Positions 9,961 to 42,561 of a stretch of 64,000 nt of DNA are shown one piece after another. How positions within the stretch are numbered: the first letter of the stretch is position 1; every line of letters starts with the position of its first letter. Location: NCBI GenBank assembly GCA_015063605.1, contig SVTV01000011.1:1-64000 (forward strand), given 5' to 3'. The DNA is from Oscillospiraceae bacterium. Its GTDB lineage: Bacteria; Bacillota; Clostridia; Oscillospirales; SIG627. The position numbers and the translations under genes are program-made. The notes below the pieces were generated by a model. The model worked only from the letters and a program-made list of their open reading frames with translations, had not been told where the DNA came from and did not search any database.

Positions 9961-10877
9961 TGAAAAAAGCTTTACTTATAGCAGGAGGCGGAACTCTCGG
10001 TACTTACACAGCAGAGGAGCTTCTGCGTCTCGGACACAGCGTTGATATCATTTGCCTTGAGGATAAGGTATCCGATAATAAAGATCTGAGATACTATAAG
10101 GCGAATGCCACGCTGGAATTCCTTCGTGAGCTTTTCAAGGAGAACCGCTATGACGGTATAGTCAATTTTATCCATTACAAGAATCATCTCGACTATATTC
10201 CCTATCATGAATTGCTGACGGAAAACACGGATCATCTTATCTTTCTGTCCTCATACCGTGTTTATGCGGATCTTGAACATCCCGTCAGGGAAACATCCCC
10301 GCAGCTTATAGACGTTATAAAGGACGATCCCGAGTTTTTCGAAAAGGAGGATTACGCCCTGTCAAAGTCCAAGGCTGAAAGATTCCTGCGTGACAATCCG
10401 TATCCGAAAAAATGGACTATAGTCCGTCCCGTTATCTCCTTCTCGGACAGAAGACTTGATATAAATATGGTCTCCCGTCATGAAGTGATCGAAGCGGTGA
10501 AGGAGGGAAGAAAGGTCAGACTTCCCATCGAAGCAAAGCATCTTACGGCAGGTCTTGATTGGGCGGGAAACTCGGGTAAGATAATAGCCAACCTTCTCTT
10601 CAAGAAGGAATGTATAGGAGAAGCCTATACGGTATCCTCAGCTCAGAATCTCACAACGGCGGAGATCGCGGATATTTATACCGAGGTGCTGGGTGTGGAA
10701 TTCGAATGGGTTCCCGCAGACTTTAAAAGCGACAATTTCAATTGGCGCTACGACAGAATATATGACAGAACCATAGATAATTCAAAGGTGCTCGCGGCTG
10801 CGGGGCTTGAACCCTCGGATTTCAAGAGCATCAAGGAAGGCTTGATAACGGAGCTTAAAAAGCTCGGTGCTATCTGA
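9960..10877 (+). CDS. NAD(P)-binding Rossmann-fold protein (NmrA/atypical SDR epimerase-like)
   Basis: MKKALLIAGGGTLGTYTAEELLRLGHSV glycine-rich dinucleotide-binding motif; TAATG overlap with upstream gene. Confidence 0.55.
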   Translation: MKKALLIAGGGTLGTYTAEELLRLGHSVDIICLEDKVSDNKDLRYYKANATLEFLRELFKENRYDGIVNFIHYKNHLDYIPYHELLTENTDHLIFLSSYRVYADLEHPVRETSPQLIDVIKDDPEFFEKEDYALSKSKAERFLRDNPYPKKWTIVRPVISFSDRRLDINMVSRHEVIEAVKEGRKVRLPIEAKHLTAGLDWAGNSGKIIANLLFKKECIGEAYTVSSAQNLTTAEIADIYTEVLGVEFEWVPADFKSDNFNWRYDRIYDRTIDNSKVLAAAGLEPSDFKSIKEGLITELKKLGAI

Positions 10878-14997: not shown

Positions 14998-16296
14998 ATG
15001 TATCGGATCGCCATTGAAAGGCTGTTTAAATGGAAGGAAAGCAAATACCGAAAGCCGATGATCATTGAAGGCGCCCGTCAGGTCGGTAAGACATGGCTGA
15101 TGAAGGAATTCGGCAGACAGGCGTACGAGAAGACCGTATATATCAATTTTGACTCCAATTCAAGGATGGCGGAGCTTTTCTCTTCGGATCTTGATACGGA
15201 GCGTCTGATAATGGGTCTGGAGCTGTATTCGGGACAAAGGATCGATCCGGGTAAGACCTTGCTGATATTCGATGAGGTCCAGGAGGTTCCGAGAGCGCTG
15301 TCTTCCCTTAAATACTTTTATGAAAATGCTCCGCAGTATCATATTGTGTGCGCAGGCTCATTGCTCGGGATAGCCTTGCATCAAGGTACGTCCTTTCCCG
15401 TAGGAAAGGTTGATTTTCTGAAGCTGTATCCGCTCTCCTTCAAGGAATATCTGATGGCAACGGAAAAAGAACGGTTCGCGGAATTGATAGATACGAATGA
15501 TTTCCAAATGATCACAAGCTTCAGGCAAACATATATCGATTCCCTGAAGATGTATTATTTCGTGGGCGGAATGCCCGAAGCGGTACAAAGCTTTGCGGAA
15601 AATAAAGATCTTAATGAGGTACGTGAGATACAAAAGCGGATACTCGCGGCGTATGAGCAGGATTTTTCAAAGCACGCTCCCAATGAGATCGTACCGAGGA
15701 TACGTATGCTGTGGAACAGTATACCGTCCCAGCTTGCCAAAGAAAACAAGAAGTTCATCTACGGTATTGTCCGTGAGGGCGCAAGGGCGAAGGAATACGA
15801 AAGTGCGATAATGTGGCTCAGCGACTGCGGTCTTGTCCACAAGGTCAGCCGTGTCAATGCTCCGGGTATCCCTTTGCGGGCGTATGAGGACTTGAAGGCA
15901 TTTAAGCTGTTTGCGTTGGATATAGGACTTCTCGGATGCATGGCGGGGCTGCGTAGGACGGCATTGCTTGACGGCAACGATCTTTTCGTTGAGTTCAAGG
16001 GTGCTCTTACCGAACAGTATGTATGCCAGCAGCTGAAGACCGTTGAGGGAGTGGATATTTATTACTACACCAATGACAGGGGCTCCTGCGAGGTCGATTT
16101 TGTTGTTGATACGGGCGAGCGGATAGTCCCTGTAGAAGTGAAGGCAGAGGTGAATCTCAAGGCAAAAAGCCTTAAGACATACATGGAGAAATTCTCTCCC
16201 GAAATCTCGGTACGCACATCCATGGCGGATTACAAAGTAAGCGACGGTCTTGTCGACCTTCCGTTGTATGCGGTCTGCCGCATCACCATGATATGA
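14998..16296 (+). CDS. AAA+ ATPase with DUF4143 domain (AAA_14 family ATP-binding protein)
   Basis: Walker A GARQVGKTWL near N-terminus, 432 aa, architecture typical of DUF4143 ATPases. Confidence 0.7.
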   Translation: MYRIAIERLFKWKESKYRKPMIIEGARQVGKTWLMKEFGRQAYEKTVYINFDSNSRMAELFSSDLDTERLIMGLELYSGQRIDPGKTLLIFDEVQEVPRALSSLKYFYENAPQYHIVCAGSLLGIALHQGTSFPVGKVDFLKLYPLSFKEYLMATEKERFAELIDTNDFQMITSFRQTYIDSLKMYYFVGGMPEAVQSFAENKDLNEVREIQKRILAAYEQDFSKHAPNEIVPRIRMLWNSIPSQLAKENKKFIYGIVREGARAKEYESAIMWLSDCGLVHKVSRVNAPGIPLRAYEDLKAFKLFALDIGLLGCMAGLRRTALLDGNDLFVEFKGALTEQYVCQQLKTVEGVDIYYYTNDRGSCEVDFVVDTGERIVPVEVKAEVNLKAKSLKTYMEKFSPEISVRTSMADYKVSDGLVDLPLYAVCRITMI

Positions 16297-16493: not shown

Positions 16494-17069
16494 ATGAATA
16501 TAATAAAAGGAGATCCGATGATCCCGGGTACCGTCTTTTCAAAGGAAAAGATGGGAAATGTCACGGGGATGGAGTTTTTGAATAAAATATTCTTTATATC
16601 CGACGGTATAATGTTTAATCAGGTAAAGCAGATAACGGGTCTTGATGTATCCACCATACAGAATTGGGTAAGGCGCGGATGGGTGCCCAACCCTGTGAAC
16701 AAGAGATACAGCAAGGACACCGTGGCACGTATACTTATAATCATTATGCTGAAAAAGACCATGAGTCTTGAAAGAATAGATGCACTTTTAAAATACATCA
16801 ACGGAACTATAGGTGATGTGACCGACGATATAATCCCCGAATCGAAGCTTTATGATTATATATGTCGTATAATCGATAAGCTTACTGCGGAGAGCAGTGA
16901 GTCGGGTATGGACGGTCTTGTGAAGACTATTGAGGAATGTGTTTCGGATTATGAGGAAAAATATGCGGGAGCAAGAAGAAGGCTCGAGAAGGCTCTCGAG
17001 ATAATCGTGGTATCTTATTATGCGGTGCTGCTTGCAGAGTATGCCGAAAGGTGCTTTGATGAAAGATAG
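16494..17069 (+). CDS. MerR-type HTH domain protein (DUF1836-like), function unknown
   Basis: VKQITGLDVSTIQNWVRRGWVPNP fits the MerR-family HTH pattern; first gene of NfeD/flotillin operon. Confidence 0.4.
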   Translation: MNIIKGDPMIPGTVFSKEKMGNVTGMEFLNKIFFISDGIMFNQVKQITGLDVSTIQNWVRRGWVPNPVNKRYSKDTVARILIIIMLKKTMSLERIDALLKYINGTIGDVTDDIIPESKLYDYICRIIDKLTAESSESGMDGLVKTIEECVSDYEEKYAGARRRLEKALEIIVVSYYAVLLAEYAERCFDER

Positions 17070-17106
17070 AGTATCATATATATTTTAAAGAAAGGAAGCT
17101 TGTGTT

Positions 17107-17715
17107 ATGTTTGAATGGTTTGAGGCTTTAAGCAGTATTGCGAAGATATATGCATTCATAGCCATCCCGTCTACGGTCATTCTGGTGATACAGACGGTAC
17201 TGGTGCTTTTCGGAATAGGAGATGCCGAAGCCGATGTGGAGATCGATGCGGACGGCGATCTCGGAGATGTAAGCGCCGACGTTAACGGCGACGGCGGTCT
17301 TACCTTATTCAGCGTCCGCGGGATAATGGCGTTTCTCTGCGTGGGCGGTTGGAGCGGTCTCGTCTTCGAAAAATTGGGACTTCATCTGATAGTTGTTATA
17401 GCCTTGTCCCTTATCTGCGGAAGCGCCGCACTTGTGGGAATAGCTTTTCTTGTGAGAGCTTTATTGAAGCTTCAGGATAACGGCAATACCGATATTTCCA
17501 ACGCCATAGGAAAGATAGGCGAGGTGTACATACCCATTCCCGGAGAAGGAAAGGGAAAAGGAAAAATAACGCTCGTTTTGCAGGAAAAGTTTTCCGAGGT
17601 GTATGCCATAACCCAAGAATCGGAGACTATAAAAACGGGTGAATCGGTCCGTGTGGTGTCCACAAACGGTCTCGATCTTGTTGTAGTGGAAAGGCTCAAG
17701 GGCTTTTCGAAGTAA
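17107..17715 (+). CDS. NfeD-family membrane protein (YuaF-like flotillin partner)
   Basis: N-terminal TM helices plus C-terminal OB-like soluble domain; immediately upstream of flotillin gene, as in the Bacillus yuaF-floT arrangement. Confidence 0.65.
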   Translation: MFEWFEALSSIAKIYAFIAIPSTVILVIQTVLVLFGIGDAEADVEIDADGDLGDVSADVNGDGGLTLFSVRGIMAFLCVGGWSGLVFEKLGLHLIVVIALSLICGSAALVGIAFLVRALLKLQDNGNTDISNAIGKIGEVYIPIPGEGKGKGKITLVLQEKFSEVYAITQESETIKTGESVRVVSTNGLDLVVVERLKGFSK

Positions 17716-17812
17716 TTCAGATTTTTATGCGTTAAGAACGCATTGAAATACCGATATGATCGGATAATATTTTTGTGATTTTAAAAGTAAAATCGGAAAG
17801 GCAAGGTTAAAA

Positions 17813-19210
17813 ATGGAATTGATAATTCTTTTCACCGTGATTGCGGTTCTTCTCTTTACGACGGTAATAGTTTTACTGTCAAGGTACAAAAAGTGTCCTT
17901 CTGACAAGATCATGGTAATTTACGGTAAGGTTGGCACAAACAGCGACGGAACCCAAAGAAGCGCCCGATGCATCCACGGCGGTGCGGCGTTTATATGGCC
18001 CGTGTTCCAGTCGTATCAGTATCTCGATCTTACACCCATATCCATCAGCGTAGATCTTAAGAACGCACTTTCCCGTCAGAATATCCGTATAGATGTTCCT
18101 TCACGTTTTACCGTTGGTATATCCACTGAAAGCGGTATAATGCAGAATGCTGCGGAAAGACTTTTGGGTCTCAAGATGGAAGAGGTACAGAGACTTGCCG
18201 AGGATATTATATTCGGTCAGCTCCGTCTTATCATCGCCACAATGGATATCGAAGAGATAAACACGGACAGAGATAAGTTCCTTGAAGCGGTCTCCGGAAA
18301 TGTTGAAACAGAGCTTAAGAAGATCGGTCTGCGCCTTATCAACGTTAACGTAACGGATATCGATGACGAATCCGGATATATCGTTGCTCTCGGTAAGGAA
18401 GCGGCTTCCAAGGCAATAAATGATGCGAAGGTATCCGTGGCACAGGCTGACAGAGCAGGCTCCATCGGTGCGGCAGAAGCTGAAAGAGACCAGAGAATAA
18501 ACGTATCCCGTTCAAACTCCGAGGCTATCGAGGGTGAAAACCAGGCTAAGGCGAAAATTGCGGAATCCGATGCTATCCGCCGTGAAAAGGAAGCGGAAGC
18601 CTTGAAGAGAGCTACAGCGGCTGAAAATATTCAGGCGGCAAAGGCTCAACAGGAATCCTATGCGGCTCAGCAGGAAGCGGAGCAGGCTCGTGCACTTCTT
18701 GAAAAGGCACGTCTTGAAGCCGATATCATCGTTAAGACGGAAATAGAAAAGAAACGCCTTGAGCTTCAGGCGGAAGCTGAAGCAGAACAGATACGCCGCA
18801 GAGCACGCGGTGAAGCCGATGCTATCAGAATGCGCCGTGAGGCGGAAGCTGTCGGTATGTATGAGATACTTTCAAAGCAGGCGGAAGGTTTTGCCAAGAT
18901 CGTGGATTCCGCAGACGGAAACTCCAATGCGGCTATCAAGCTTATGCTTGCCGATAAGATGGAAAAGCTCATATCCCTCCAGACAGAGGCTATAAAGAAT
19001 ATCAAGATAGACAAGGTCACCGTTTGGGACTCCGGTACGGCAGGAAAGGACGGAAAGAATTCCACAGCGGATTTCATTTCCGGAATAATGAAGTCTCTGC
19101 CTCCCATAAACGATATGCTCGATCTTGCGGGAATGCAGCTTCCCGAATATCTTGCACAGCCTAAAGGCGAAAGTGAAAATGCACCCTCTGAGGAAAACAA
19201 GGCTGAATAA
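17813..19210 (+). CDS. floT: Flotillin-like SPFH/band-7 protein (FloT/YuaG-type)
   Basis: N-terminal TM plus RYKKCPSDKIMVIYGKV SPFH start; long Ala/Glu-rich coiled-coil flotillin domain (AEAERDQRIN...EAEQARALLEKARLEAD). Confidence 0.8.
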   Translation: MELIILFTVIAVLLFTTVIVLLSRYKKCPSDKIMVIYGKVGTNSDGTQRSARCIHGGAAFIWPVFQSYQYLDLTPISISVDLKNALSRQNIRIDVPSRFTVGISTESGIMQNAAERLLGLKMEEVQRLAEDIIFGQLRLIIATMDIEEINTDRDKFLEAVSGNVETELKKIGLRLINVNVTDIDDESGYIVALGKEAASKAINDAKVSVAQADRAGSIGAAEAERDQRINVSRSNSEAIEGENQAKAKIAESDAIRREKEAEALKRATAAENIQAAKAQQESYAAQQEAEQARALLEKARLEADIIVKTEIEKKRLELQAEAEAEQIRRRARGEADAIRMRREAEAVGMYEILSKQAEGFAKIVDSADGNSNAAIKLMLADKMEKLISLQTEAIKNIKIDKVTVWDSGTAGKDGKNSTADFISGIMKSLPPINDMLDLAGMQLPEYLAQPKGESENAPSEENKAE

Positions 19211-19273
19211 TAAGAATTTATAAATCGATCCGTGATCCCCGCACAATATTGACCAATAAAATAAAGGTTTGTA

Positions 19274-19903
19274 TTGTACGGGGATCTTTTAAATGAAAAA
19301 GGTGTTATCATGAAAAATCAGAATTTCAGAATGTGGATAAATAATCTGTTGAAAGCGTTTCTTTCATTATTTATATGCGGTTTTGTGGGACAGCTTGCAT
19401 ATACCGTTTTCTTGAATACGAAGAACACAATGGCACCAAAGGAAGCGGAACCCGCTACGTCGATAGTAAGCTTTATAATATTTTTGATAGCTGTGTTCGT
19501 CATATATAAAATACAGGTTTTCGGAAGCCTTACGAATAAAGGCATTGATGAAAGAGAAATTCTTGAAAAAGCCTTTAGGGAAAATAATTACGAGATAGAC
19601 TATAATGCATATTTCAAAGATCAGGTGAAAAAGCGTCTTTGGAGTTATTACCTTGCGGCGGCGCTGGTTCAGATACCGCTGATTATAAATTATGCTCTTG
19701 TGAATGCTGTGAATATGACTCTTTACGAAGCGCCGATAGCTTTTTATAAGTTCTTCATGCCTTCACTTTTCGCATATCAGATGTGCGGAGACCTTTGGTT
19801 CTTGGGGGCATTAATATTTGTTTTGCTCTTCAGCGTTGTTTTCACAGCTCTTGTATACATAGAGCAAAAAAAGTGGCTTGTAAAACCGAGTTATCTGGAG
19901 TGA
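19274..19903 (+). CDS. Polytopic membrane protein, unknown function
   Basis: About 4 predicted TM helices; first gene of AT-rich island; probable start at 19311 (MKNQNF). Confidence 0.45.
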   Translation: MYGDLLNEKGVIMKNQNFRMWINNLLKAFLSLFICGFVGQLAYTVFLNTKNTMAPKEAEPATSIVSFIIFLIAVFVIYKIQVFGSLTNKGIDEREILEKAFRENNYEIDYNAYFKDQVKKRLWSYYLAAALVQIPLIINYALVNAVNMTLYEAPIAFYKFFMPSLFAYQMCGDLWFLGALIFVLLFSVVFTALVYIEQKKWLVKPSYLE

Positions 19904-20104
19904 ACCGGAAGAGATTCTTATTGTCCATATTGCAAAAAAAATTACGTGGTGTTCTTATAAAGATAATGAGTGAACAGAAAACTGTGGGTTTACATTATTG
20001 TGTTTTCTGTGGAATTTGAATTTTTAGAAAATTTAAAGAAGCGTATTTAAAATTTGTTGAGGAAAATAAAAAGCTGACAAGGGAATATACAGGGTAAGCA
20101 TCAG

Positions 20105-20701
20105 ATGAAAATAGAAGAAGTATTGATATTGCCGTCAATAGTATTGCTTATCATAGCATTGGCGCTTTATTACAGAGCATCATACACGCGCATATTTATA
20201 AAAAGATTAACTATGCGCAAGAAAATTAAAAAGCTCTGTAAAAAGAAAGGGTATAAATTACATCCTGCCCGTACTTTATGGTGGTTGGGAAGAAACAGCG
20301 GTACACGACCCGATTTTTATATAGCAACTAAGGAATATATAGTATCTGTTAAGCTTTTTGCATCGAAAACACGGCACGGTATTTTGATATTTGAACAAAA
20401 CGGAAGTTTTTACTTAAGAAAGTATATCGGTATCAGAATGTTGGGTAATTCATTTATTACACCGTATAAATCTATGCCGGGGAAATTACATAAGATATTT
20501 TTTAATTACGGTTTTAAGGATGAATGGTATACAAAAACTCCTATTAAGATAATGCTTTTGAATCCTACCCCTATGGAAGTAAGGGTTACGGGGGAAAACG
20601 GAAAAGAAAATGTTGTATCATCTTCACAGCAGTTATTCGGTGCATATATTTACTCACTCACGGGATTTTTATCCCGATTGGAAGCTATTGATGAAATCTG
20701 A
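20105..20701 (+). CDS. N-terminally membrane-anchored protein, possible PD-(D/E)xK / NERD-like nuclease fold (weak)
   Basis: Single N-terminal TM (ILPSIVLLIIALALYY) then soluble domain with ...RPDFYIATKEYIVSVKLF... D/E/K arrangement; very AT-rich coding sequence. Confidence 0.3.
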   Translation: MKIEEVLILPSIVLLIIALALYYRASYTRIFIKRLTMRKKIKKLCKKKGYKLHPARTLWWLGRNSGTRPDFYIATKEYIVSVKLFASKTRHGILIFEQNGSFYLRKYIGIRMLGNSFITPYKSMPGKLHKIFFNYGFKDEWYTKTPIKIMLLNPTPMEVRVTGENGKENVVSSSQQLFGAYIYSLTGFLSRLEAIDEI

Positions 20702-20746
20702 AAGCAACTTTTCGGCATGTAATGACCGAAAGAAAAGTACATTGAT

Positions 20747-22195
20747 ATGGAAAATCTCCACTTTTTAAATTACAATGAGACAGGTGCAAACAGTTCGGAA
20801 ATAATAGAGGATTGCTTTGCCGACGGAATGTTCAATGAAAATTTTTATAAAATTCTTTTATCCTCTGCGGGAAAAAGAGAGATCCTTAAACGTCAAAGTG
20901 TTTTCAGAGAAGCGGAAAACGAAGAATGCCTTTTGAAGCTTAGAAATGTTTATGAAGGAAGCATCGGAGTAAAGACAGCGTTAAAATGGGTTGAGCGGGC
21001 AAAAGGGGATTTGGAAAAGCAATGTATGCATCTGAAATTTTTGGATAGCTTTCTCAAGTCCGCTCGGACGCTTGCCGAGTTTTCCCAAAGCTCATGCGAG
21101 CCACTAAGAGAGATAGGCACTTTCTGGGATAATGAACTTAAAAAATATCCGCAGCTTTCAGATGATGTGAAGCGTATATCGGAAGGAATGAAAGAGTTTT
21201 TGACGGTCAATTTGGTGGAAAATGATGAACTTTGGATAACTCCCGATTACGGCAGTGTGTTTTATGTGGATATATTGAAGGATTGTGCCGATGCTCTCGG
21301 AGTTGAATGTCAATTACCTTTCGGAAAAGGAAGCATCAGAAGCCCATATTCTGATTTCCTTTCTCTCTTCGGCGGAAAAAGCGAGGCTGTCAGAGAGACT
21401 TTGGATAAATACACTTTTCTTTTGAAGGACAGCTCCGCAGAGCTTTTGGTGTCTTACGGAAGTGAGATAGATTTTTACCTGACATTTATTGATTTTAAAG
21501 AAAACAAAGGAAGCGCTCTGCCACTTTGCTATCCCGAAATATCTCACGAAAAGAAATTTTATGCAAAGGATGCTGCAGATATATCCCTTGTAGTTCAGAA
21601 CATACCGAAAATTGTGACTAACGATATATATATCGATGAAAGCGAACCGTTTTTCTTCATAGTAGGTGCCAACGGCGGAGGAAAGACATCCTATATTCGT
21701 GCTGTGGGAATAAATCTTCTTTTGTTTTTGGCGGGTTGTCCCATATTCGCAAGAGAAGCGCAAATATATCCGTTTGATAATGTGTTTACGCATTTTCCGA
21801 GAAACGAAAAGGAAGAAACCAAGGGCAGACTCAACGAGGAAACAGTCCGCATACAAAACTTATATGACGGCATGGGAAGAAATTCCGTCATTCTTCTTAA
21901 CGAGACTTTCTCTTCCGTGAGCGAGGAAAACGGTACGGAGCTTTCGTTGGATGCGGCGGAGAAAATACGTAATTCCGGCTGTTTCGGACTTTTTGTAACC
22001 CACTACAGAGATGTATGCTTCTCGGAATATCCCTATTTATCGGCGGAAATACAGAAAGGGAATGATAATAACGGCAGAACATTCAAAATAGTCAGAGAAA
22101 ATCGTGATCCGGAAGCGTATATCAATGATATATTGAGAAGATATCGTCTTGATGAAGAATCCTTGAATGTGAGAATTGCGGCGGAGGTAGAGTAA
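20747..22195 (+). CDS. MutS-core ATPase paralog 1 (MutS domains III-V only; no mismatch-binding, connector or Smr domains)
   Basis: MutS domain V Walker A FFFIVGANGGGKTSYIRAVGINLLLFLAGCPIFA (cf. MutS ITGPNMGGKSTYMRQ...AQIGSFVPA); MutS Walker B/signature region LLNETFSSVSEENGTELSLDAAEKIRNSGCFGLFVTHY. Confidence 0.7.
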   Translation: MENLHFLNYNETGANSSEIIEDCFADGMFNENFYKILLSSAGKREILKRQSVFREAENEECLLKLRNVYEGSIGVKTALKWVERAKGDLEKQCMHLKFLDSFLKSARTLAEFSQSSCEPLREIGTFWDNELKKYPQLSDDVKRISEGMKEFLTVNLVENDELWITPDYGSVFYVDILKDCADALGVECQLPFGKGSIRSPYSDFLSLFGGKSEAVRETLDKYTFLLKDSSAELLVSYGSEIDFYLTFIDFKENKGSALPLCYPEISHEKKFYAKDAADISLVVQNIPKIVTNDIYIDESEPFFFIVGANGGGKTSYIRAVGINLLLFLAGCPIFAREAQIYPFDNVFTHFPRNEKEETKGRLNEETVRIQNLYDGMGRNSVILLNETFSSVSEENGTELSLDAAEKIRNSGCFGLFVTHYRDVCFSEYPYLSAEIQKGNDNNGRTFKIVRENRDPEAYINDILRRYRLDEESLNVRIAAEVE

Positions 22196-23646
22196 TGGAA
22201 TTGAGCTTGATGAATCTTGCGGGAAACGAAGCGCCGAAATCTTGTATGACATTGTGTGATGCAACGAAAAGCGATATTTTGTTTTACAGATTTTTTGAAG
22301 CGCTGTCATGTGTCAACGGCAGAAAAGTAAGCGAACGTGAAGTGTTTTCCGATGCTTTGCGTAAATTGATGACACATCCTCTTTGTACAAAAGAAGAGAT
22401 AGTATACAGACAGGATGTTATTTGCGACTTTATTTCCGACAGAGCACTTTGGGACGGGTTTTATTCCTGCTTTTACCATTTGAATGAATGCAGAGAAGAG
22501 CTCAATGTAAAACTGAAAGAAAATATGGGAGCTTACAGAAACGCTTCAAATGCTATATTCAATGCATGCGGATATCTCAGAAGTGTAAGCTTTATATTGA
22601 AAAGAATACTTCTTATCATGAAAAGGCTTAAAAACGTTCTGGATAGCGGAAATTACAGGAGTGAAGGCTTGAAGCGTTTGCACGAATACGTTATTCCTTT
22701 TGATGACGGGAATGAAAAGCTCAAAGAACTTATTTCTGTTTGCGGAAGATTTGAAATGTTTACTTCCGAAGAAGAACGTGACCTACGCTTGGAGTTTGAC
22801 GATCAGGGATGCATACAAAAATTCGGACTTATAAACGAAAAATACGTAAAATTTACCGATCCCCGTTTGAAAGAGAAGAAGAGCTTTTTCAGGAAAAACA
22901 GCATCGGTGAAGTGTATCCTTCTGTGCGGGTTTCTCTTAACGAAGAAAAAGGCTGTGATGTAAAAGCAGTATCGGATATTTCCGATATGATGCAGGATAT
23001 ATCAAGAAGCATATTTGAATCCGTGGGAACTGTTTGCGACGAGAGAGATGTTTTTAAAGCAGTGCTGTTTTTGTATGATCTTCTTTCGGGTAAAAATATT
23101 CCCCTTTGCTTCCCGGAAGTCAACGAAGGCGAGTGTATATTGTACGAAAATCTTTACGACCCTTTTTTATCTCTTGACGGCGGTATAGAAGTGAAGCCGA
23201 GAACTTTTGCTTTTTCACGCAAAAAGGGGCTTATAGTTTGCGGAGATAACGGAAGCGGAAAGACATTTTTGCTCCGTTCTCTCGGAATGGCTCAGGTCAT
23301 GGCACAAAGCGGATTGTTTGTTACGGCGGAAAATGCCTGTATTAACCTGACAGAATGTGTGAAGACCATCTTTGCCGGCAAAGAAAACGAGAGAGTTAAA
23401 ACGGCAAATAAAGGCAGATTCGAACAGGAAGTCAAGCTCCTTTCCGATGCCGCAAGTGAGGATTCTCCGAGATCGCTTTTGCTTATAAATGAGATATTCC
23501 AATCTACGGATTATAAATTGGCTTCGAAAGCGATGGTTCCTATTTTGGGATTTTTGGCAAAAAAGGGGAACTGCTGTGCTATGGCTACACACCTTGATGA
23601 ACTGAAAATAAATTCCGCTTTTGATAATATAGAATTAAGGAGTTGA
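22195..23646 (+). CDS. MutS-core ATPase paralog 2 (domains III-V only)
   Basis: LIVCGDNGSGKTFLLRSLGMAQVMAQSGLFVTA Walker A; LLINEIFQSTDYKLASKAMVPILGFLAKKGNCCAMATHLDEL; lever-like region EEIVYRQDVICDFISD; TAATG start overlap with paralog 1. Confidence 0.7.
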   Translation: MELSLMNLAGNEAPKSCMTLCDATKSDILFYRFFEALSCVNGRKVSEREVFSDALRKLMTHPLCTKEEIVYRQDVICDFISDRALWDGFYSCFYHLNECREELNVKLKENMGAYRNASNAIFNACGYLRSVSFILKRILLIMKRLKNVLDSGNYRSEGLKRLHEYVIPFDDGNEKLKELISVCGRFEMFTSEEERDLRLEFDDQGCIQKFGLINEKYVKFTDPRLKEKKSFFRKNSIGEVYPSVRVSLNEEKGCDVKAVSDISDMMQDISRSIFESVGTVCDERDVFKAVLFLYDLLSGKNIPLCFPEVNEGECILYENLYDPFLSLDGGIEVKPRTFAFSRKKGLIVCGDNGSGKTFLLRSLGMAQVMAQSGLFVTAENACINLTECVKTIFAGKENERVKTANKGRFEQEVKLLSDAASEDSPRSLLLINEIFQSTDYKLASKAMVPILGFLAKKGNCCAMATHLDELKINSAFDNIELRS

Positions 23647-23652
23647 ATTATT

Positions 23653-24273
23653 ATGTCGAAAATACCAAATGATTTAAAACGTTTTTCTGTCAAGTGTGTA
23701 TTGAAAAGAGTAATTCCGTGCATTCTCGGAGAAATAGTATTGGGGATAATACTTTTTCTTTGGGGCGACAGAATATTTATGACGGATATTACTGAATTTA
23801 AGATAAGCTGTTATATCGTTGTTATGTGCATTCCTTTCGTGCTGACCGGTGTTCCGTTCAAACTTTTTGACCGAACCTTTTTCGGTAAGGTAAATAAAGT
23901 CAAGGTTGAAAGCGAACTGACTTCAACGGGAGTAAGTGCAGTCGAAATGAGAGGCTCGAAGGTTACCTTTTATGCAATACTTCAAATTACAGATGAGAAT
24001 GGAAATATATTCGACCGTAAGGTGAAGCTTGATAATTTGGATTCTGAGAGAAACAAAGATATTTTCGGAAAAAAATTAAGCGGAAATGGTGTAGACGTCA
24101 GCTTCAAAGCCGGGGACAGAGTGTTTCACTTGTTTGGAACAAACAATTTAGTTGTTTTACCCGAAGCGTCGGATACTACTGTTAAATGTGCGGTTTGCGG
24201 TCGTATCAATCCCGTGGAAAATAACGAATGCAGTAAATGCGGGCATACTTTGGTTAAAGAATTGCCGTTGTGA
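23653..24273 (+). CDS. Two-TM membrane protein with C-terminal CxxC-x12-CxxC zinc ribbon
   Basis: TM helices IPCILGEIVLGIILFLWG and YIVVMCIPFVLTGVPF; C-terminal KCAVCGRINPVENNECSKCGHTL; 7 bp downstream of MutS paralog 2. Confidence 0.55.
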   Translation: MSKIPNDLKRFSVKCVLKRVIPCILGEIVLGIILFLWGDRIFMTDITEFKISCYIVVMCIPFVLTGVPFKLFDRTFFGKVNKVKVESELTSTGVSAVEMRGSKVTFYAILQITDENGNIFDRKVKLDNLDSERNKDIFGKKLSGNGVDVSFKAGDRVFHLFGTNNLVVLPEASDTTVKCAVCGRINPVENNECSKCGHTLVKELPL

Positions 24274-24297
24274 CATATAAATCAATACTATCAATGT

Positions 24298-24420
24298 GAT
24301 TTTGTCGAAGGTTTCGATGAAAAAACGTCGAAGGTTTCGATAAAATTGTGTCAAAAACGTCGAAGGGTTCGACAAAATTGCGTCGAAAGCTTCGATAAAA
24401 TTGTGTCGAAGGTTTCGATA
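24298..24420. repeat. Array of five palindromic sites GTCGAAGGTTTCGA(T/C) (TCGAA-N3-TTCGA) with A-rich spacers, period about 23 bp
   Basis: Copies begin at about 24301, 24324, 24356, 24379, 24402; candidate operator array for a dimeric DNA-binding protein. Confidence 0.8.
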
Positions 24421-24489
24421 TTTCCCGGAATGCTTTGAATCGGTTAAATTTATTTACAACCCCGTTACAAAAAGTTTACAATTTTTCTG

Positions 24490-24518
24490 TTGACAAAAAC
24501 AAGTCCGTATGATACTAT
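24490..24518 (+). promoter_or_regulatory. Sigma70-like promoter TTGACA-17-TACTAT
   Basis: ttgacaaaaacaagtccgtatgatactat upstream of structured leader. Confidence 0.55.
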
Positions 24519-24567
24519 ATAGATGTAAGCTCAAATGCACTTTTGAGTTTTGGATCGGCATCATTTA

Positions 24568-24652
24568 CGAGATATTATCGCGCAAAGAGGTCAGGGTATA
24601 AGCAGAGAGAAAGTATCTCGTTTATGCAGTGTCTCTTTGCGCATTTTTGTAT
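24568..24652 (+). promoter_or_regulatory. Structured 5-prime leader with intrinsic-terminator-like hairpin immediately upstream of RBS (candidate riboswitch/attenuator)
   Basis: ATCGCGCAAAGAG (24577-24589) pairs with CTCTTTGCGCAT (24633-24644) followed by TTTTTGTATT; RBS GAAAGGGG lies downstream of the T-run; additional pairing CGAGATA / TATCTCG. Confidence 0.45.
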
Positions 24653-24669
24653 TATGAAAGGGGATTATT

Positions 24670-25401
24670 ATGAAAGATGACCTTAAACAGTTTTTAAAGA
24701 ATTTTTTGAAAAAGCTTCTTATATTCCTTGCCGTTGCAGGCGGCATAGTGCTTTTCTTTGTGATCTTTTATGCCATATTCCCAAGCGACGGAGGAAAAGG
24801 TGGCTGGGGATTTAAAAAGCCATCGGGGGGAGAAGCAATTTTAGCCAAGCCCGTTATATACCTCTATCCCGAAGAAACCACAGACGTAAAGGTTGAGCTT
24901 GATATAAGCGGAGAGCTTTACTGTACATATCCGAAGTATGAAGACGGTTGGGAAGTAACGGCGTACCCCGACGGTACTCTTGAAGATAAGAAGGACGGGA
25001 ATGAGTATTCATATCTCTTCTGGGATGCATACAGCGATATCGACTTCGATCTTTCCCGTGGATTTGTTGTAAAGGGAGAAGATACGGCGGAGTTTTTACG
25101 TGATACTTTAAGTAAAATGGGACTTTTGCCGAAGGAATACAATGAATTTATAGTATATTGGCTTCCCTTAATGGAGAAAAACGATTATAATTTTATTACG
25201 TTCCAGAAAGAAGCGTATACGGATAATGCAAAGCTTGATATAACGCCCGCACCCGACAGTATTCTTCGTGTTTACATGGTTTATACTGCCGTTGATGAAG
25301 ATGACGTTAAGAAATACGAGGGAATTGAAGCTCCCAAAATAAAAGGCTTTGAGCGTAAAGGCTTTACGGTAGTTGAATGGGGCGGTTCCGAAATTAAGTA
25401 A
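24670..25401 (+). CDS. N-terminally membrane-anchored extracytoplasmic protein, unknown function
   Basis: Single TM LLIFLAVAGGIVLFFVIFYAIF then Gly-rich linker and soluble domain. Confidence 0.5.
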   Translation: MKDDLKQFLKNFLKKLLIFLAVAGGIVLFFVIFYAIFPSDGGKGGWGFKKPSGGEAILAKPVIYLYPEETTDVKVELDISGELYCTYPKYEDGWEVTAYPDGTLEDKKDGNEYSYLFWDAYSDIDFDLSRGFVVKGEDTAEFLRDTLSKMGLLPKEYNEFIVYWLPLMEKNDYNFITFQKEAYTDNAKLDITPAPDSILRVYMVYTAVDEDDVKKYEGIEAPKIKGFERKGFTVVEWGGSEIK

Positions 25402-25424
25402 TACTGTTTGCAAGGAAGGATCAT

Positions 25425-26921
25425 ATGTATAAGGTGCGGTCATCGTCGGAAGCCGAAACGCTTTTTGAAAAAAGAAAAAACGATATATTGAATGCGGCGG
25501 ATGAAATAAGCTTTTCGGGGGACTCATATTATGTGTCTGCGGAGGGAAGCGACGACAATGACGGAATGTCGCCCTCGTCACCGTGGAAGACACTTTCCAA
25601 GGTGTCGGAATCAAAGCTTTCAAGGGGTGATGCGGTACGCTTTCGCCGCGGAGATGTGTTCCGCGGATATGTTCGTACTTGCCCCGGTGTCACATATTGT
25701 GCCTACGGAGAGGGCGAAAAGCCGAAGCTTTACGGCTGGGATAAAGATCTGTCGGGTAAGGGAATGTGGACTCTTTACGATAAGGAGAACATGATATGGA
25801 AGCTTAATGACGCTATCCTCGATTGCGGAACTCTCGTGTTCGATCACGGAGCATTGCACAGCAGAAAGCTCATACCGTCATATATAAACGGAAAGTATGT
25901 TTGCAGAGATGATGAAAGCAAGGATTTTCACATGGAAAATGAAATGACGGAGGACCTTGATATTTTCTGCCGTTACACGGAAAGAATGACGGAATCTCCG
26001 TCAAAGGGCGAAAGCTTTCCCGTTCCCGTCATAGATGAAAAAAGCTTCGGTGAGCTTTACCTGAGATGCGATAAAGGCGATCCTTCCGAGGTCTTTTCTT
26101 CCATAGAAGCATTGCCGAAGAGGAACATGATATATGTGGGCGGTAATGAAAACGTGACTGTTGATAATCTTTGTCTGAAGTATATCGGCGCTCATGCCAT
26201 AGGTGCGGGCGGTGTATCTGTTAAGGGGCTTACGGTAAGAAACTGCGAGATAGGCTGGATAGGAGGCTCCGTTCAGCATTATCTCGGAACAGACCCCAAT
26301 TATCCCCAAGGCGGCAGAGGTACTGTGACAAGGTACGGAAACGGCGTTGAGATATACGGCGGGTGCGACGGTTACACGGTGGAGAATTGTTATATATATC
26401 AATGCTATGATGCCGCAATAACTCATCAGGTGACTACCGACAAAACAAGATTTGAAATGAAGAATATACGCTATCGCGGTAATATTGTGGAGAATTGCGT
26501 TTATTCCGTTGAATATTTTCTCGAGAAGCTTAATGGCGAAAGGGATAGCTTTATCGGTGATTGCGTTATTGAGGAAAATATTCTTCGTCTTTGCGGTTAC
26601 GGTTGGGGACAGCAGCGCCACAACAAAGAGACCCCTGCCCATATAAAGGGCTGGGATTACGAGAATACCGCCGAAGGATCTGTTATCCGCAATAATATTT
26701 TTGACCGCTCCGCTTACCGTATGGTGCATATTACCGCAAAAAGCGCGGAAAGTCTTCCCGATATATATGATAACGTATATATTCAGACCGATGGCATGAG
26801 TCTCGGACGTTTCGGTTCTCATGATATCGGTGCTTGGGAGTTTGCTTTCGATCGTGACGGAATAAAACGCTTTTCAAAGCTTACGGGCGAAACGGAAGGA
26901 AATTTTATTATAAGGGTATAG
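25425..26921 (+). CDS. Right-handed parallel beta-helix repeat protein (pectate-lyase-fold; polysaccharide lyase/hydrolase-like)
   Basis: Repeats such as VRNCEIGWIGGS, GNGVEIYGGCDGYTVENCYIYQCYDAAITHQ, NCVYSVEYF typical of PbH1 beta-helix; no obvious signal peptide. Confidence 0.5.
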   Translation: MYKVRSSSEAETLFEKRKNDILNAADEISFSGDSYYVSAEGSDDNDGMSPSSPWKTLSKVSESKLSRGDAVRFRRGDVFRGYVRTCPGVTYCAYGEGEKPKLYGWDKDLSGKGMWTLYDKENMIWKLNDAILDCGTLVFDHGALHSRKLIPSYINGKYVCRDDESKDFHMENEMTEDLDIFCRYTERMTESPSKGESFPVPVIDEKSFGELYLRCDKGDPSEVFSSIEALPKRNMIYVGGNENVTVDNLCLKYIGAHAIGAGGVSVKGLTVRNCEIGWIGGSVQHYLGTDPNYPQGGRGTVTRYGNGVEIYGGCDGYTVENCYIYQCYDAAITHQVTTDKTRFEMKNIRYRGNIVENCVYSVEYFLEKLNGERDSFIGDCVIEENILRLCGYGWGQQRHNKETPAHIKGWDYENTAEGSVIRNNIFDRSAYRMVHITAKSAESLPDIYDNVYIQTDGMSLGRFGSHDIGAWEFAFDRDGIKRFSKLTGETEGNFIIRV

Positions 26922-26929
26922 GATCAATT

Positions 26930-27817
26930 ATGAAACACATAAAAAAAGCTTTTGGAATAATATCTCTTTTGTTGACCGCATTAATGGTATTTTTATCCTG
27001 CGCTCCTGCAGGTGCGCCCCTTTCGGGTACATCCGATATAGGGATAAGCTTAAACAATACGGCAACGGGAGAAAAACCGAGCCAAGCAGAGCCGATAGCT
27101 CCCGGAGAGGGCTGGCAGGTCACAGCCGAGACCTCTTTCAAGGTCAGTCTTATGAATAAAAGCGGAGAGGGAACAGGTATCGCAAGAGTAGCGGCTATAA
27201 CCTCTTCCGAGGGTGAGCATTCTATATATATTGATATTCTCGATGAAGATGGAAAGGTGCTTCACAGCTTAATGCAAAGGGGCAGAGGATTTGTGTTCGC
27301 TTTGGGAGAAGAACCCTCGGCGATCGCCGTTCTTACAACAAATGTTTTGAAGGATAAGAGACTTGCTTCTCAGATCATGTATTATTCTTTCGGAGATTCT
27401 GTGGTAAACAGAATAGCATCCGACGGAAGAATGGGTGTTTCCGATGAAAAAGCCGAGCCTGCGGGGATAGCTGTGCGGAGGATCAAAAACGGAAGCCGTC
27501 AAGGCGGCGGATGGGTATCTCTCGGAAATGCCAACGTTGCCGACAAGGCGGGAGTGGCGTTTTCTCAAAACAATTATGCTCATTATACTTCTCAGCTTCA
27601 GGAGCTGCTTTATAATGAAAGTAAAAACGGCAGTACGTATTTTTATACCTTACTTGATTCCTATACGGAAAAGGATACCGTTAAGGTATACACTCCCCAT
27701 GATAAGGTCATAGCTCTTGAACCCGGAAAGGATCATATTTCCGATCCTATGGAAAAGCACCTTTTTGATGATGAAATAGACGGAATTTACGAAAAATACC
27801 TTAACGGATGGTTCTGA
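26930..27817 (+). CDS. Lipoprotein, unknown function
   Basis: Signal peptide with lipobox LLTALMVFLSCAPAG. Confidence 0.5.
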   Translation: MKHIKKAFGIISLLLTALMVFLSCAPAGAPLSGTSDIGISLNNTATGEKPSQAEPIAPGEGWQVTAETSFKVSLMNKSGEGTGIARVAAITSSEGEHSIYIDILDEDGKVLHSLMQRGRGFVFALGEEPSAIAVLTTNVLKDKRLASQIMYYSFGDSVVNRIASDGRMGVSDEKAEPAGIAVRRIKNGSRQGGGWVSLGNANVADKAGVAFSQNNYAHYTSQLQELLYNESKNGSTYFYTLLDSYTEKDTVKVYTPHDKVIALEPGKDHISDPMEKHLFDDEIDGIYEKYLNGWF

Positions 27818-27873: not shown

Positions 27874-29235
27874 TTATATTGATATCGTTCCGTCCGAAAG
27901 GTCTTTTGCCGCAAAGGATACAAAGTAAAACGGTATTGTAAGAAGCTTCTGCTCGTTATCGTAACCGTAATTGTTTTTGGAGATCTTTATGGCAAATTCA
28001 AATTTGTTGTGATTGGAGAACTTTTCAAGAGAATTTAAAGTGCCTCTGCCCTTTTTGACATCTATCGGATAAAGCTTGTTATCCGATTCTATGATAAATT
28101 CAAGCTCTGCCGAGGATTTTCCGCGCCAATAAAACAACTTCAGGTCTTTGGCTACCAGCTCATTGGCAACAAAATTTTCGAAAAAGATGCCTGACAGAGT
28201 GTTTTCTCTGCTGCTTGATATGAAGGATGATGCATTGATACCGCTCTGATATGAGAACATGCCGATGTCTCCGAGAAAAAGACGGAAATTACTTTCATTA
28301 TCAGCCATAAGAGGCATCGAAACATGCTCTTTGAGCTGAAATGACTGATTCACAATGTGCGCTAATGTGAGCCACTGAACAGAGGTGGCAAAATCTCTTG
28401 TCCTGCTGTTTTCCTCGATCAGCCCGGGAGAAAAATTCTTCGATTCTTTGTTGAGCTCTTTGAAAATATTCTCGAATAAGGTGCGAGAGCGCAATACCGA
28501 TTCTCTGCTCGCTTGATACAGCTCCATATCCGAAAGGTAATTATCATATAAAGACTTCAATATCTCTCTTGCTTCGAAAAGATCGCCATCGCTTATATAA
28601 GCGTCTACCGCTTCGGGCATTCCGCCTACAAGCAAGTATCTGTATACTTGCTCCATTGCCAGCTCATGGATATTTGCATCCGGAGGTGTTTTTGTATCGT
28701 ACGCTTTTTTTACGGCGTCATAAAGAGGCGTGTTGGAGTTCAGTAAGAATTCGTCAAAGGTCAACGGATACACGGTTATCTGATTTATTTTTCCTACGGG
28801 AAAAAGAAACTTACCGGTCTCCTCGGAGCCCTTTTTTCGTGTCTCCCTTTGGAGCTTGATCCTTACCATAGAACCTGTTGCGATGACGGGGATATCTCTG
28901 AGATCCTGACAAAAGTATTTCAGAGATGATATTATATTCGGACACTCCTGGATCTCATCGAAGATCAAAAGAACGCTTTCGTCTATTCTTCTTCCTTTTG
29001 AAAGAGAAATATATTCTACGATCTTCTCGGCATTTGCGGTCTCGGAGCAAAATTCCCGTATATCGTCTTCCTTCTTCAGATCGATATAGATATAGCTGTT
29101 CTTGTAATACCTTTCGGCAAATATTTTTTGAACAAGGTAAGTCTTTCCGACCTGTCTTGCTCCCCACACGATCAGAGGCTTTTTTCTTTTATTATTATTC
29201 CAGGCTATTAATGATTGCAAAGCAATTCGTTCCAT
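27874..29235 (-). CDS. AAA+ ATPase with DUF4143 domain (second, diverged copy)
   Basis: Walker A WGARQVGKTYLVQ; 453 aa; same architecture as 14998-16296 but low sequence identity. Confidence 0.7.
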   Translation of the reverse strand: MERIALQSLIAWNNNKRKKPLIVWGARQVGKTYLVQKIFAERYYKNSYIYIDLKKEDDIREFCSETANAEKIVEYISLSKGRRIDESVLLIFDEIQECPNIISSLKYFCQDLRDIPVIATGSMVRIKLQRETRKKGSEETGKFLFPVGKINQITVYPLTFDEFLLNSNTPLYDAVKKAYDTKTPPDANIHELAMEQVYRYLLVGGMPEAVDAYISDGDLFEAREILKSLYDNYLSDMELYQASRESVLRSRTLFENIFKELNKESKNFSPGLIEENSRTRDFATSVQWLTLAHIVNQSFQLKEHVSMPLMADNESNFRLFLGDIGMFSYQSGINASSFISSSRENTLSGIFFENFVANELVAKDLKLFYWRGKSSAELEFIIESDNKLYPIDVKKGRGTLNSLEKFSNHNKFEFAIKISKNNYGYDNEQKLLTIPFYFVSFAAKDLSDGTISI

Positions 29236-33862: not shown

Positions 33863-33917
33863 TAAATTTATATTTAACGGCAAAAAGTGTTGAAATATGA
33901 GGAGATAAAACAAAAGG

Positions 33918-34110
33918 GGGGCGTCGCATTAAGCGACGCCCCCGCTAAAACAGCGGACGAAAATAGGGGACGGGAAGCCGCTATTTTCGGAAACTTGAAC
34001 GTTTTTGGCGTGCTTTAGTACGAATTTTTACGTAATTTCGGTGCCAAAACGATGAATTTTATTCATCGAGTTCAATTTCAGGGCTTGGCTCACGTTAGTG
34101 AGACAGCCCC
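33918..34110. repeat. 193-bp structured repeat element, copy A (candidate small RNA or MITE)
   Basis: About 97 percent identical to 52171-52363; starts with hairpin GGGGCGTCGC-ATTAA-GCGACGCCCC, contains CGCTAAAACAGCG and GAAAATAG...CTATTTTC hairpins, ends with GGGCTTGGCTCAC-GTT-AGTGAGACAGCCCC followed by TTTGTTTTC. Confidence 0.8.
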
Positions 34111-41720: not shown

Positions 41721-42403
41721 ACAAAGCTGATGAAAAAATAGCCTTAGCTTTGGCGCAGGTGGATGCGGAAGAGTTTAAAAATATGGATATGACCGCCGCC
41801 GATAATTGGGTACCGTCGGAAAAGTTTGAAAAGAAGATAGGAAAGCTTCTGAAACATCGGAAAGAACCGTTTATTAAAATTGCGGGTAACGCAAGAAAAC
41901 GCTTTGCGGCTGTAGCATGTGCGTTTCTTGTTTTTTTCGGTGCCGCCATGAGCGTGGAGGCGTCGAGGGAGTTTATAGTGGGATTTGTTGTTGATATATA
42001 TGAAAATATATCTAAGTTTGCATTCGAAAATCCGGAAGGAGCAAATGCTCCCAAAGAAATAGAAATAAGATACTATCCGGAATATATTCCGGACGAATAT
42101 GAATTGAGAGAAACGAAAGAGTCAAGATTTCGCAATGAAATTGTATTTTATAACAAGAAAGATCAAGCTTTGATATATACACAATATTTGATTGATTCAA
42201 TTTCGATCTCGCTTGATACAGAGGATGTTAACATAAATGAAATAAAAATCGGTGATTATTCCGGGTATTACTATATAAGTAAAGAATTAATAAATATTAT
42301 ATGGAAAACTGATGAGTATGTTTTCTATATCAGCGGCGATGAAAATATAACTTTAGATGCGCTTATTGAGATGGCTGAAAGCTTAAAGGCGGAAGAAAAA
42401 TAA
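41717..42403 (+). CDS. Membrane-anchored anti-sigma-factor-like protein (DUF4367-type)
   Basis: ATGA overlap with sigma gene; single TM (FAAVACAFLVFFGAAMSV) followed by extracytoplasmic domain; classic Clostridial ECF partner layout. Confidence 0.55.
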   Translation: MNKADEKIALALAQVDAEEFKNMDMTAADNWVPSEKFEKKIGKLLKHRKEPFIKIAGNARKRFAAVACAFLVFFGAAMSVEASREFIVGFVVDIYENISKFAFENPEGANAPKEIEIRYYPEYIPDEYELRETKESRFRNEIVFYNKKDQALIYTQYLIDSISISLDTEDVNINEIKIGDYSGYYYISKELINIIWKTDEYVFYISGDENITLDALIEMAESLKAEEK

Positions 42404-42439
42404 TTTTTTTCAAAAAAATTGAAATTTTTTCTAAAAATA

Positions 42440-42471: not shown

Positions 42472-42561
42472 GGTTAGAGGGACAAAAAATGCTTTTGAAT
42501 TGTTTTTTCAATGAACAAGTATATATGTTTCCTCTAATACATAGCAAAGGAGGAAAACGTT

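Follow-up and report, generated by a model that had tools for sequence, protein, structure and literature searches.

What is the role, if any, of five phased palindromes that lie between a block of inserted genes and a resident operon? The question arises from a 64,000-nucleotide stretch of an Oscillospiraceae genome (contig SVTV01000011.1, positions 1 to 64,000 of the forward strand; this whole stretch is hereafter called the window), in which an array of five TCGAA-N3-TTCGA sites occupies positions 24300 to 24423. A preliminary description, made from the sequence alone, had proposed that such sites bind a dimeric DNA-binding protein. We observed that the array belongs to a family of 23-bp repeats which at three other loci overlap promoters of genes encoding Schlafen-like proteins of the COG2865 type. 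We read the copy in the window as an orphan array of operator type, to which a dimeric DNA-binding protein would bind, possibly the protein of the COG2865 type, and give this reading a probability of about 0.45.

The array consists of abutting 23-bp palindromes

The motif TCGAANNNTTCGA (TCGAA-N3-TTCGA) has exactly five matches in the window, all on the + strand, starting at 24305, 24328, 24360, 24383 and 24406. In 100 dinucleotide-preserving shuffles of the window the mean number of matches was 0.22 and the maximum was 2, and none of the shuffles reached five. The phased palindromic sites reported earlier are therefore real and were correctly placed. The reservation made at the time, that the motif might be common simply because of base composition, did not hold, as the window has no match outside the array. 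Three of the five cores are exactly GTCGAAGGTTTCGAT; the other two have the central triplets GGG and AGC, and one of these two ends in C.

The start-to-start spacings of the cores are 23, 32, 23 and 23 bp, as given by Tandem Repeats Finder and a repeat finder. Adding 5 bp on each side of the cores extends them to a 23-bp palindrome, TTTYRTCGAA-RSY-TTCGAYRAAA, and consecutive units of this size abut. The A-rich 8-nt spacers, which together with one longer spacer had been described correctly, are thus the outer arms of neighbouring palindromes. From the exact core matches and the unit register, the units were placed as follows: unit 1 at 24300..24322 (core 24305-24317; TTTTGTCGAAGGTTTCGATGAAA), unit 2 at 24323..24345 (core 24328-24340; AAACGTCGAAGGTTTCGATAAAA), unit 3 at 24355..24377 (core 24360-24372; AAACGTCGAAGGGTTCGACAAAA), unit 4 at 24378..24400 (core 24383-24395; TTGCGTCGAAAGCTTCGATAAAA) and unit 5 at 24401..24423 (core 24406-24418; TTGTGTCGAAGGTTTCGATATTT).

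Units 2 and 3 are separated by a nine-base remnant (24346..24354; TTGTGTCAA), in which the unit start TTGTGTC is fused to the A-run preceding unit 3. Read as a whole, the long spacer has TTGTGTC joined to AAAAACG, so that the beginning of one unit runs directly into the tail of the spacer before another. This fusion and the 32-bp spacing suggest that the array probably once had six units, the sixth of which was shortened by an internal deletion of 14 bp (46 - 14 = 32). At the other end, the right arm of unit 5 deviates from the YRAAA consensus and the array stops abruptly, from which we infer a breakpoint. Over the five units the ten core positions show no difference (0/50), compared to 17/65 (26%) at the other 13 positions (Fisher p = 2.5e-5), a contrast that is partly circular because the sites were recognised by their intact cores.

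The array is intergenic. The sole open reading frame (ORF) overlapping it is an implausible 72-aa one on the minus strand with a TTG start, and the motif is not coding in relatives either, which disposes of a second reservation made earlier. The array is not a clustered regularly interspaced short palindromic repeat (CRISPR) locus, as had been stated, because the units abut and there are no unique spacers; the only CRISPR-repeat match in Rfam was noise (E = 4.8). Dispersed palindromes of the repetitive extragenic palindrome or bacterial interspersed mosaic element (REP/BIME) kind were also rejected, as the 64 kb hold one array and no isolated sites, and each family-carrying genome in the species scan described below has a single locus.

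Related arrays in other genomes

A scan that took a single genome from each of 185,579 species and looked for pairs of sites 8-12 bp apart gave 112 stretches. Most of these were chance pairs of sites within GC-rich coding sequence; a distinct subset shares the full 23-bp palindrome, the AAATTT junctions and the 23-24-bp period. A more specific scan of metagenome contigs added three loci (L125, L130 and L131). After loci at the same place in related genomes had been merged, the repeat family comprises 11 independent loci, the window included. The unit consensus was derived from 30 non-redundant units (32 listed) at 14 loci, before same-lineage loci were merged, and all five units of the window fit it in the core and mostly in the arms. 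Family loci have at least two abutting units at a 23-24-bp period, sometimes with one longer gap, and the window conforms to this pattern. The arrays of L070 and L147, for example, each include one 19-nt spacer. Similarity between loci is confined to the arrays themselves, and the orientation of the units varies from locus to locus.

The hosts are Lachnospiraceae, Ruminococcus, Oscillospiraceae, Clostridia and Erysipelotrichaceae contigs, with the exception of L090, a low-GC contig in a Senegalimassilia bin, and of L045/L125, a Coriobacteriia-like pair. The loci related to this pair are at 64% GC, which suggests Coriobacteriia as its host; in those related 64%-GC genomes the array-bearing segment is absent. 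Other repeats also occur beside some of the arrays. L045 has GCATTTGCAAmCGCAACC-like repeats at ~1010-1190, and in L149 the sequence CTTATTTCGCC is present three to four times (3466-3624) between the two arrays of that locus.

The two-site pattern had seven matches in viral contigs, none of them of the repeat family, and the array of the window had no match among 72,556 plasmid records. Three metagenome matches (L124, L126 and L129) were set aside as unrelated low-GC tandem repeats; they may be eukaryotic, L124 carrying an F-box-like ORF. The repeat family is real, and we did not find it described, as searches of the searchable full-text literature with the motif and its variants returned nothing relevant.

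Related arrays overlap promoters of COG2865-type genes

At seven of the 11 loci, a gene of the COG2865 type, encoding a protein of ~490 aa with SLFN_AlbA_2 and HATPase_c_4 domains, lies within ~400 bp of the array. In the NCBI annotation these array-linked genes appear as 'putative DNA binding domain-containing protein', and the protein of L112 is GenBank MBQ8876806.1. Five gene lineages (L112/L149, L070/L147, L058, L130/L164 and L008) have the array directly 5' of the gene, no more than ~150 bp from its start codon. The gene of L008 is degraded; the intact array-linked proteins are 50-70% identical to one another. At L090 there is a single site 70 bp upstream of the gene and a full array 3' of it, and at L048 the array is 3' of a distant paralog.

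Three of these loci were scanned for promoters, and promoter overlap was present in all three. In L149, two full sites are followed by TCGAAAGTGTTGACA, the second half of which forms the -35 hexamer of a promoter with a 12/12 match to TTGACA-17-TATAAT. L147 has the same layout, with TCGAAGCCATTGACA overlapping an 11/12 promoter. The 10/12 promoter of L164 encloses site 1 between its hexamers and is followed, past the -10, by sites 2 and 3. This overlap with strong sigma-70-type promoters at related loci makes an operator array for a dimeric DNA-binding protein the best-supported of the proposals put forward earlier.

The surroundings of the gene differ greatly. It is found beside FTCD_C and hrcA-grpE-dnaK genes (L147), beside a plsY-like gene whose identity was read from its C-terminal sequence (L008), between sugar-utilisation genes (L058/L093), beside a rolling-circle Rep gene (L149) and on a plasmid-like element with Rep_3, TnpB, HNH, RadC and a T2SSE ATPase (L164). 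As judged from these flanking genes, the array moves together with the gene between genomic contexts. The best reading of the repeat family in gut Clostridia and Erysipelotrichia is that it would supply one clade of SLFN_AlbA_2 + HATPase_c_4 genes with their promoter-operator region.

Such a region would resemble lambda OR/OL and the C-box pairs of restriction-modification controllers, which likewise have several adjacent phased dyad sites for a dimeric helix-turn-helix protein. The sites at the related loci overlap the -35 or fall between or after the hexamers, and the array travels with the gene. It would differ from them in that the units are 23 bp long, abut without a spacer and reach five or six copies, and in that the copy in the window is detached from such a gene and promoter.

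An iteron set or partition centromere of an integrated plasmid-like replicon, which the preliminary description had also offered, is hardly tenable. Iterons and sopC-type centromeres have a similar direct-repeat form, and the array does consist of five direct repeats with a period of ~23 bp and internal dyad symmetry. Plasmid iterons (Rep_3, RepA and pi-type) come likewise in about five copies at a ~22-23-bp period, and the centromeres of ParB/SopB systems (F sopC) are tandem arrays in which each unit has an inverted repeat able to bind a dimer. However, a search of the 18 proteins annotated at 11.9-38.8 kb gave no rep, parA, parB or parR domain, and no rep or par gene was seen among the annotated genes within ~10 kb of the array; the context is chromosomal and syntenic with a relative described below (L136); and the plasmid records gave no match. 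Unlike iterons, the array has no origin features nearby and each of its units is a palindrome. Unlike sopC, it has a period of 23 bp rather than 43 bp, it is without nearby partition genes, and the related arrays overlap the promoter of a non-partition gene. The Rep_3 element L164 is particularly informative here. Its TCGAA sites occur only in the 76-bp gap before the Schlafen-like gene, and elsewhere it carries two separate, unrelated tandem arrays (23-bp x5 and 22-bp x6.8, at 2675-2805 and 10567-10716), which fit iterons better. This confinement of the sites argues strongly against an iteron or centromere and for a promoter-operator role. The two tandem arrays of L164 are themselves possibly the iterons or centromere of the Rep_3 element.

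In the window the array ends a 4.4-kb insertion

The closest syntenic relative that is readable across the junction is L136, in which the gene order is DUF1836, a 226-aa gene, Band_7, a 180-aa gene and the ortholog of the 243-aa protein encoded downstream of the array (63% identical). The window keeps this order over 16494-19903, the last gene of the series being 57% identical to its L136 counterpart, and then has 19904-24423 interposed. L136 runs directly from the ortholog of 19274-19903 to that of 24670-25401, with only ~60 bp from the upstream stop codon to a conserved -35 and no array. The array had been placed between an inserted gene block and the next operon, and this comparison agrees with that placement. 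From the synteny of L136, which is without the segment, the four genes and the array together are an insertion of ~4.4 kb relative to L136, with the array as its right-hand end; the lower GC of the island (0.38-0.39 compared to ~0.46 in the flanks) agrees with this. Another relative, the 93%-identical L135, is uninformative on the presence of the array, as its contig starts 12 bp past the array position, as if the assembly broke there.

The segment without a counterpart in L136 (19904..24299, + strand), with the array at its right edge, encodes on the + strand a 198-aa ORF (20105-20701), a MutS_V-like ATPase (MutS domain V; 20747-22195), a second MutS_V-like ATPase (22195-23646) and a zinc-ribbon protein (23653-24273), the stop codon of which lies 31 bp before the array. 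On the other side, the resident operon (24670..27817, + strand) encodes a 243-aa membrane-anchored protein (ORF 24670-25401), a 498-aa beta-helix protein and a 295-aa protein. Its near-consensus sigma-70-type promoter, TTGACA-17-(TG)TACTAT at 24490..24518 on the + strand, is conserved in L136. More than 7,700 matches place the 243-aa protein in a very large family of Clostridia.

The earlier suggestion that nearby regulators act through the array found no support. TCGAA-N3-TTCGA was absent from all sampled loci with homologs of three neighbouring genes, namely the zinc-ribbon gene (L139-L144), the second MutS-like gene (the paired-MutS_V-like loci L145 and L146) and the downstream 243-aa gene (L136 and L137). 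By this sampling, the array is not tied to its neighbours in the window. PADLOC gave no match for the island genes or the downstream genes, except for an AAA_14/DUF4143 gene at 27874-29235. Rfam gave no matches over the whole window at gathering thresholds, and a permissive search of 24200-24750 returned noise only. The idea of an attachment site at a tRNA gene was dropped, as neither the window nor 10 related loci contain a tRNA gene.

Some of the genes around the array are of interest in themselves. Adjacent pairs of ATPases of ~480-500 aa each, having MutS domain V only, occur in the window (20747-23646), in L145 (4499-7503) and in L146 (4502-7641). This uncharacterised conserved pair recurs in distant genomes at 24-27% identity, and the copies in the window are almost orphans in a database of 5.8 billion proteins. 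In another Ruminococcaceae lineage (L139, 7001-12030), a zinc-ribbon homolog stands directly upstream of a DUF1836 / 209-aa / Band_7 cluster, the same cluster that precedes the island in the window; the 198-aa genes of the window and L139 are not homologous. The zinc-ribbon gene may thus be functionally linked to the DUF1836/Band_7 cluster rather than foreign. Genes for AAA_14 + DUF4143 ATPases bracket the region (14998-16296 on the + strand and 27874-29235 on the - strand), the latter matching the PADLOC candidate defence family PDC-S01 (E = 5e-124), and such genes are also present near the arrays of L039 and L125.

RNA and recombination as alternatives

One alternative is that the array acts as RNA, its hairpins serving in the 3' untranslated region of the island operon as a terminator, processing site or stabiliser. 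We consider this very improbable. The + strand RNA of the array folds at -49.9 kcal/mol (z = -5.8), and no canonical terminator was found after the zinc-ribbon gene. However, any tandem palindromes would fold well. The hairpins of the + strand run into stretches of A instead of U, and an intrinsic terminator was rejected, since no site was called on this strand and only one weak terminator-like site on the minus strand. In addition, the arrays at related loci are upstream of promoters and hence outside the transcript of the gene they precede, and the units differ in orientation between loci.

A second alternative is a role of the array as a site of recombination or a landing pad, with palindromes that a recombinase recognises or that otherwise favour the insertion of cassettes. 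Several observations point in this direction. The array lies at a junction of variable DNA in the comparison of the window with L136. L147 and L070 are collinear and 95-97% identical apart from a cassette in L147 (5949-7814), which is lower in GC, encodes a 387-aa AAA_21 ATPase and a 173-aa protein, and with its 1866 bp takes the place of 12 bp precisely where the array has its distal edge. L125 and L045 have different genes on one side of their array; in L039 an excisionase-integrase pair precedes the array by 160 bp; in L149 it adjoins the rolling-circle Rep gene; and contigs break at or near the arrays of L135, L112, L150, L008 and L130. These comparisons give evidence that arrays are located in hot spots of gene flux.

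The details of the junctions fit a recombination site less well. No recombinase gene stands beside the array in the window, L147, L058 or L164. The junction of L147 is ~5 bp outside the outermost site and not within a palindrome, the breakpoint between L125 and L045 (96% identical up to there) is ~80-95 bp from the array, and L011 differs from L039 by a deletion of xis-int and not by an insertion at the array. Tyrosine recombinases usually have core spacers of 6-8 bp and serine recombinases of 2 bp, and the 3-bp central spacer of the array fits neither. Moreover, variable neighbours are expected anyway around defence-like singleton genes. Since the junctions lie beside rather than inside the palindromes and a recombinase is usually not near, we ranked the recombination-site function low, as distinctly improbable.

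A broader proposal joins the two roles. The array and the gene encoding SLFN_AlbA_2, GHKL and winged helix-turn-helix (wHTH) domains would form a self-regulated mobile module of gut Firmicutes chromosomes and plasmids, the array would also serve as landing pad or boundary for defence-type cassettes such as the paired MutS_V-like ATPases of the window or the AAA_21 pair of L147, and the window would hold a cassette that moved with its landing pad. This we regard as improbable.

Spo0A as the main rival

The main rival invokes a known host regulator. The half-sites TTTYRTCGAA would be 0A boxes (TGTCGAA), through which phosphorylated Spo0A would repress or activate the adjacent promoters at stationary phase or at the entry into sporulation; we judge this to be quite unlikely. 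The 0A box has the core TGTCGAA between A/T flanks, and Spo0A contacts its bases G2, C4 and G5 (PMC3485338); a Spo0A site is often a pair of boxes separated by 3 bp (PMC2731898). The array half-site resembles this core. Three perfect TGTCGAA boxes lie within the 116-bp array, of 13 in the whole 64 kb; among them are one in the left half of unit 1, TTTTGTCGAA, and one in unit 3 at 24368 on the minus strand. The remaining half-sites of the window read CGTCGAA, TATCGAA or CATCGAA (3/10 boxes being perfect), and the imperfect ones deviate from the 0A box at no position other than T1 or G2. Within a unit, too, 3 bp separate the two boxes, the centres of which are 10 bp apart. The family is nearly confined to Firmicutes-like contigs, and homologs of the COG2865-type gene in Bacteroidota, Chlorobiota and Planctomycetota are without arrays, which fits a Firmicutes-restricted host factor. 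Mobile DNA is known to use 0A boxes for sensing sporulation, as in phi29 and Nf (PMC2731898).

On the other hand, box positions 1 and 2 are constrained only to Y and R, with T in ~62% and G in ~63% of the half-sites, and a change of G2 to A lowers the affinity of Spo0A about tenfold (PMC3485338). The whole 23-bp palindrome and the AAATTT junctions are conserved, beyond the need of a 7-bp box. L045/L125 come from a Coriobacteriia-like genome of ~64% GC, a host that is not expected to have Spo0A, although there the array is in inserted DNA of lower GC. Finally, the two boxes of each unit are inverted, whereas the characterised high-affinity pairs of 0A boxes and the crystal structure of the Spo0A DNA-binding domain are tandem.

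A proposed orphan operator array

In the operator reading that we favour, a sequence-specific DNA-binding protein would occupy the 23-bp palindromes cooperatively, one dimer to each. As the array is at the right end of the 4.4-kb insertion, it most likely came in with that DNA, severed from its original promoter and gene. Provided that the cognate protein is produced elsewhere in the genome, the most likely candidate being the SLFN/GHKL/wHTH protein as an autoregulator, up to five dimers would coat ~116 bp. With the last island gene ending 31 bp to its left and the -35 of the resident operon beginning 70 bp to its right, such a complex could stop transcription of the terminator-less island from running on, or it could modulate the downstream promoter; at this locus it would be at most a roadblock or an upstream modulator. 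We count in favour of this reading that the layout of the window recurs in L147, where the cassette lies between the FTCD_C terminator and the outer array edge, so that a resident gene, a cassette and the array follow one another. The repeat with its family, the gene link, the promoter overlap at other loci and the insertion are observed; that a protein binds here, which protein this is and whether the array now acts at this locus are inferred.

Several points weigh against this reading. The -35 of the downstream operon (24490) is 70 bp beyond the last core, and no array site overlaps any promoter in the window. Four loci have an array but no nearby COG2865-type gene (the window, L039/L011, L045/L125 and L131). 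A tblastn search with five such proteins found no COG2865-type gene in the 64-kb window (best E = 0.3), so that the cognate binder is assumed rather than seen. The link between array and gene was established array-first, through searches for arrays. COG2865-type homologs in the plasmid and phage collections are at most 43% identical and have no arrays. Five of them at 41-43% identity, from plasmids of Parabacteroides, Prosthecochloris and Planctomyces (Bacteroidota, Chlorobiota and Planctomycetota) and from two fecal 'phage' contigs, lack arrays and other obvious repeat arrays upstream, and the array is therefore not a general feature of the COG2865-type family. The C-terminal winged helix of the protein was detected only below the Pfam thresholds, the only match in a PDB search was an uncharacterised structural-genomics entry, and no family member known to bind DNA was found, nor, in the literature, a functional study of bacterial COG2865 / AlbA_2 proteins. 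The copy in the window may also have no function there, and selection before the transfer, in the donor, may be what kept its cores intact.

These last points lead to the alternative of a non-functional hitch-hiker, in which the array would be a fragment of a foreign promoter-operator region that came with the insertion, or a neutral tandem duplication, with no binder and no effect. It is unlikely in our estimate. L136 is without both the insertion and the array. The promoter-proximal part, in which a site overlaps the -35 in L149 and L147, is missing from the window, unit 5 ends abruptly and one unit already carries the 14-bp deletion. The absence of a COG2865-type gene from the window is also as expected for a hitch-hiker, and three same-species metagenome contigs, being 100% identical across the region, are silent on constraint. 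Against it, all 50 core positions are intact compared to 26% differing elsewhere in the units, and the five cores are still in register; both points are compatible with a recent arrival.

Other features of the window

The resident operon is preceded by a structured leader (24525..24669, + strand), which belongs to the context and not to the array. It is 145 nt long, has a fold z-score of -4.65 and is followed by a U-run. Its nested hairpins pair 24562-24579 with 24609-24626, and GCGCAAAGAG with CTCTTTGCGC (24580-24589 and 24633-24642); alternative pairings of ACGAGATA with TATCTCGT are possible. The leader is conserved relative to L136 5850-6000, though the protein is 63% identical, the conserved stretch being TTTACGAGATATTwTCGCGCAAAGAGG...GTATCTCGTTTATGCAGwGTCTCTTTGCG. 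No Rfam match for it was found even at E < 5. This leader is a candidate unannotated attenuator or riboswitch-like element before the Clostridia gene family with more than 7,700 homologs. An upstream ORF of eight codons (ATG at 24654) overlaps the main start codon of 24670-25401.

Two other repeats and a second low-GC block were also observed. A 194-bp intergenic sequence occurs twice on the same strand (33917-34110 and 52170-52363) with 97.9% identity. It has a hairpin, GGGGCGTCGC...GCGACGCCCC, at its start and another at its end, and no match in Rfam; it may be a small repeated element or a duplicated small-RNA or terminator module. A 90-bp tandem repeat at 150-409 (2.9 copies, 94% identity), the units of which contain GCAAAC/GTTTGC inverted motifs, is directly upstream of a 796-aa ORF (405-2795) and overlaps its start. 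The region 42000-48000 has a GC content of 0.35-0.36 compared to ~0.46 elsewhere, which suggests a second horizontally acquired block.

Implications

If the operator reading is true, the repeat would provide a concrete 23-bp operator, TTTTGTCGAA-GGT-TTCGACAAAA, and the palindrome TTTTGTCGAAGGTTTCGACAAAA is what we propose as the DNA target of a COG2865-type protein such as MBQ8876806.1. It would also provide an autoregulator hypothesis for a large uncharacterised Schlafen-like family (SLFN_AlbA_2 + GHKL ATPase + probable winged helix; COG2865), and a defined DNA target would open this family to experiment. Relatives of these proteins are being implicated in antiphage defence, for example in a 2026 bioRxiv preprint on Schlafen-Argonaute fusions. 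In gut Clostridia, as documented here, the arrays are located where variable cassettes of defence-like genes adjoin other DNA. For the window, the consequence would be modest. Its array is probably a displaced regulatory fragment, and it may insulate the conserved operon from the inserted one.

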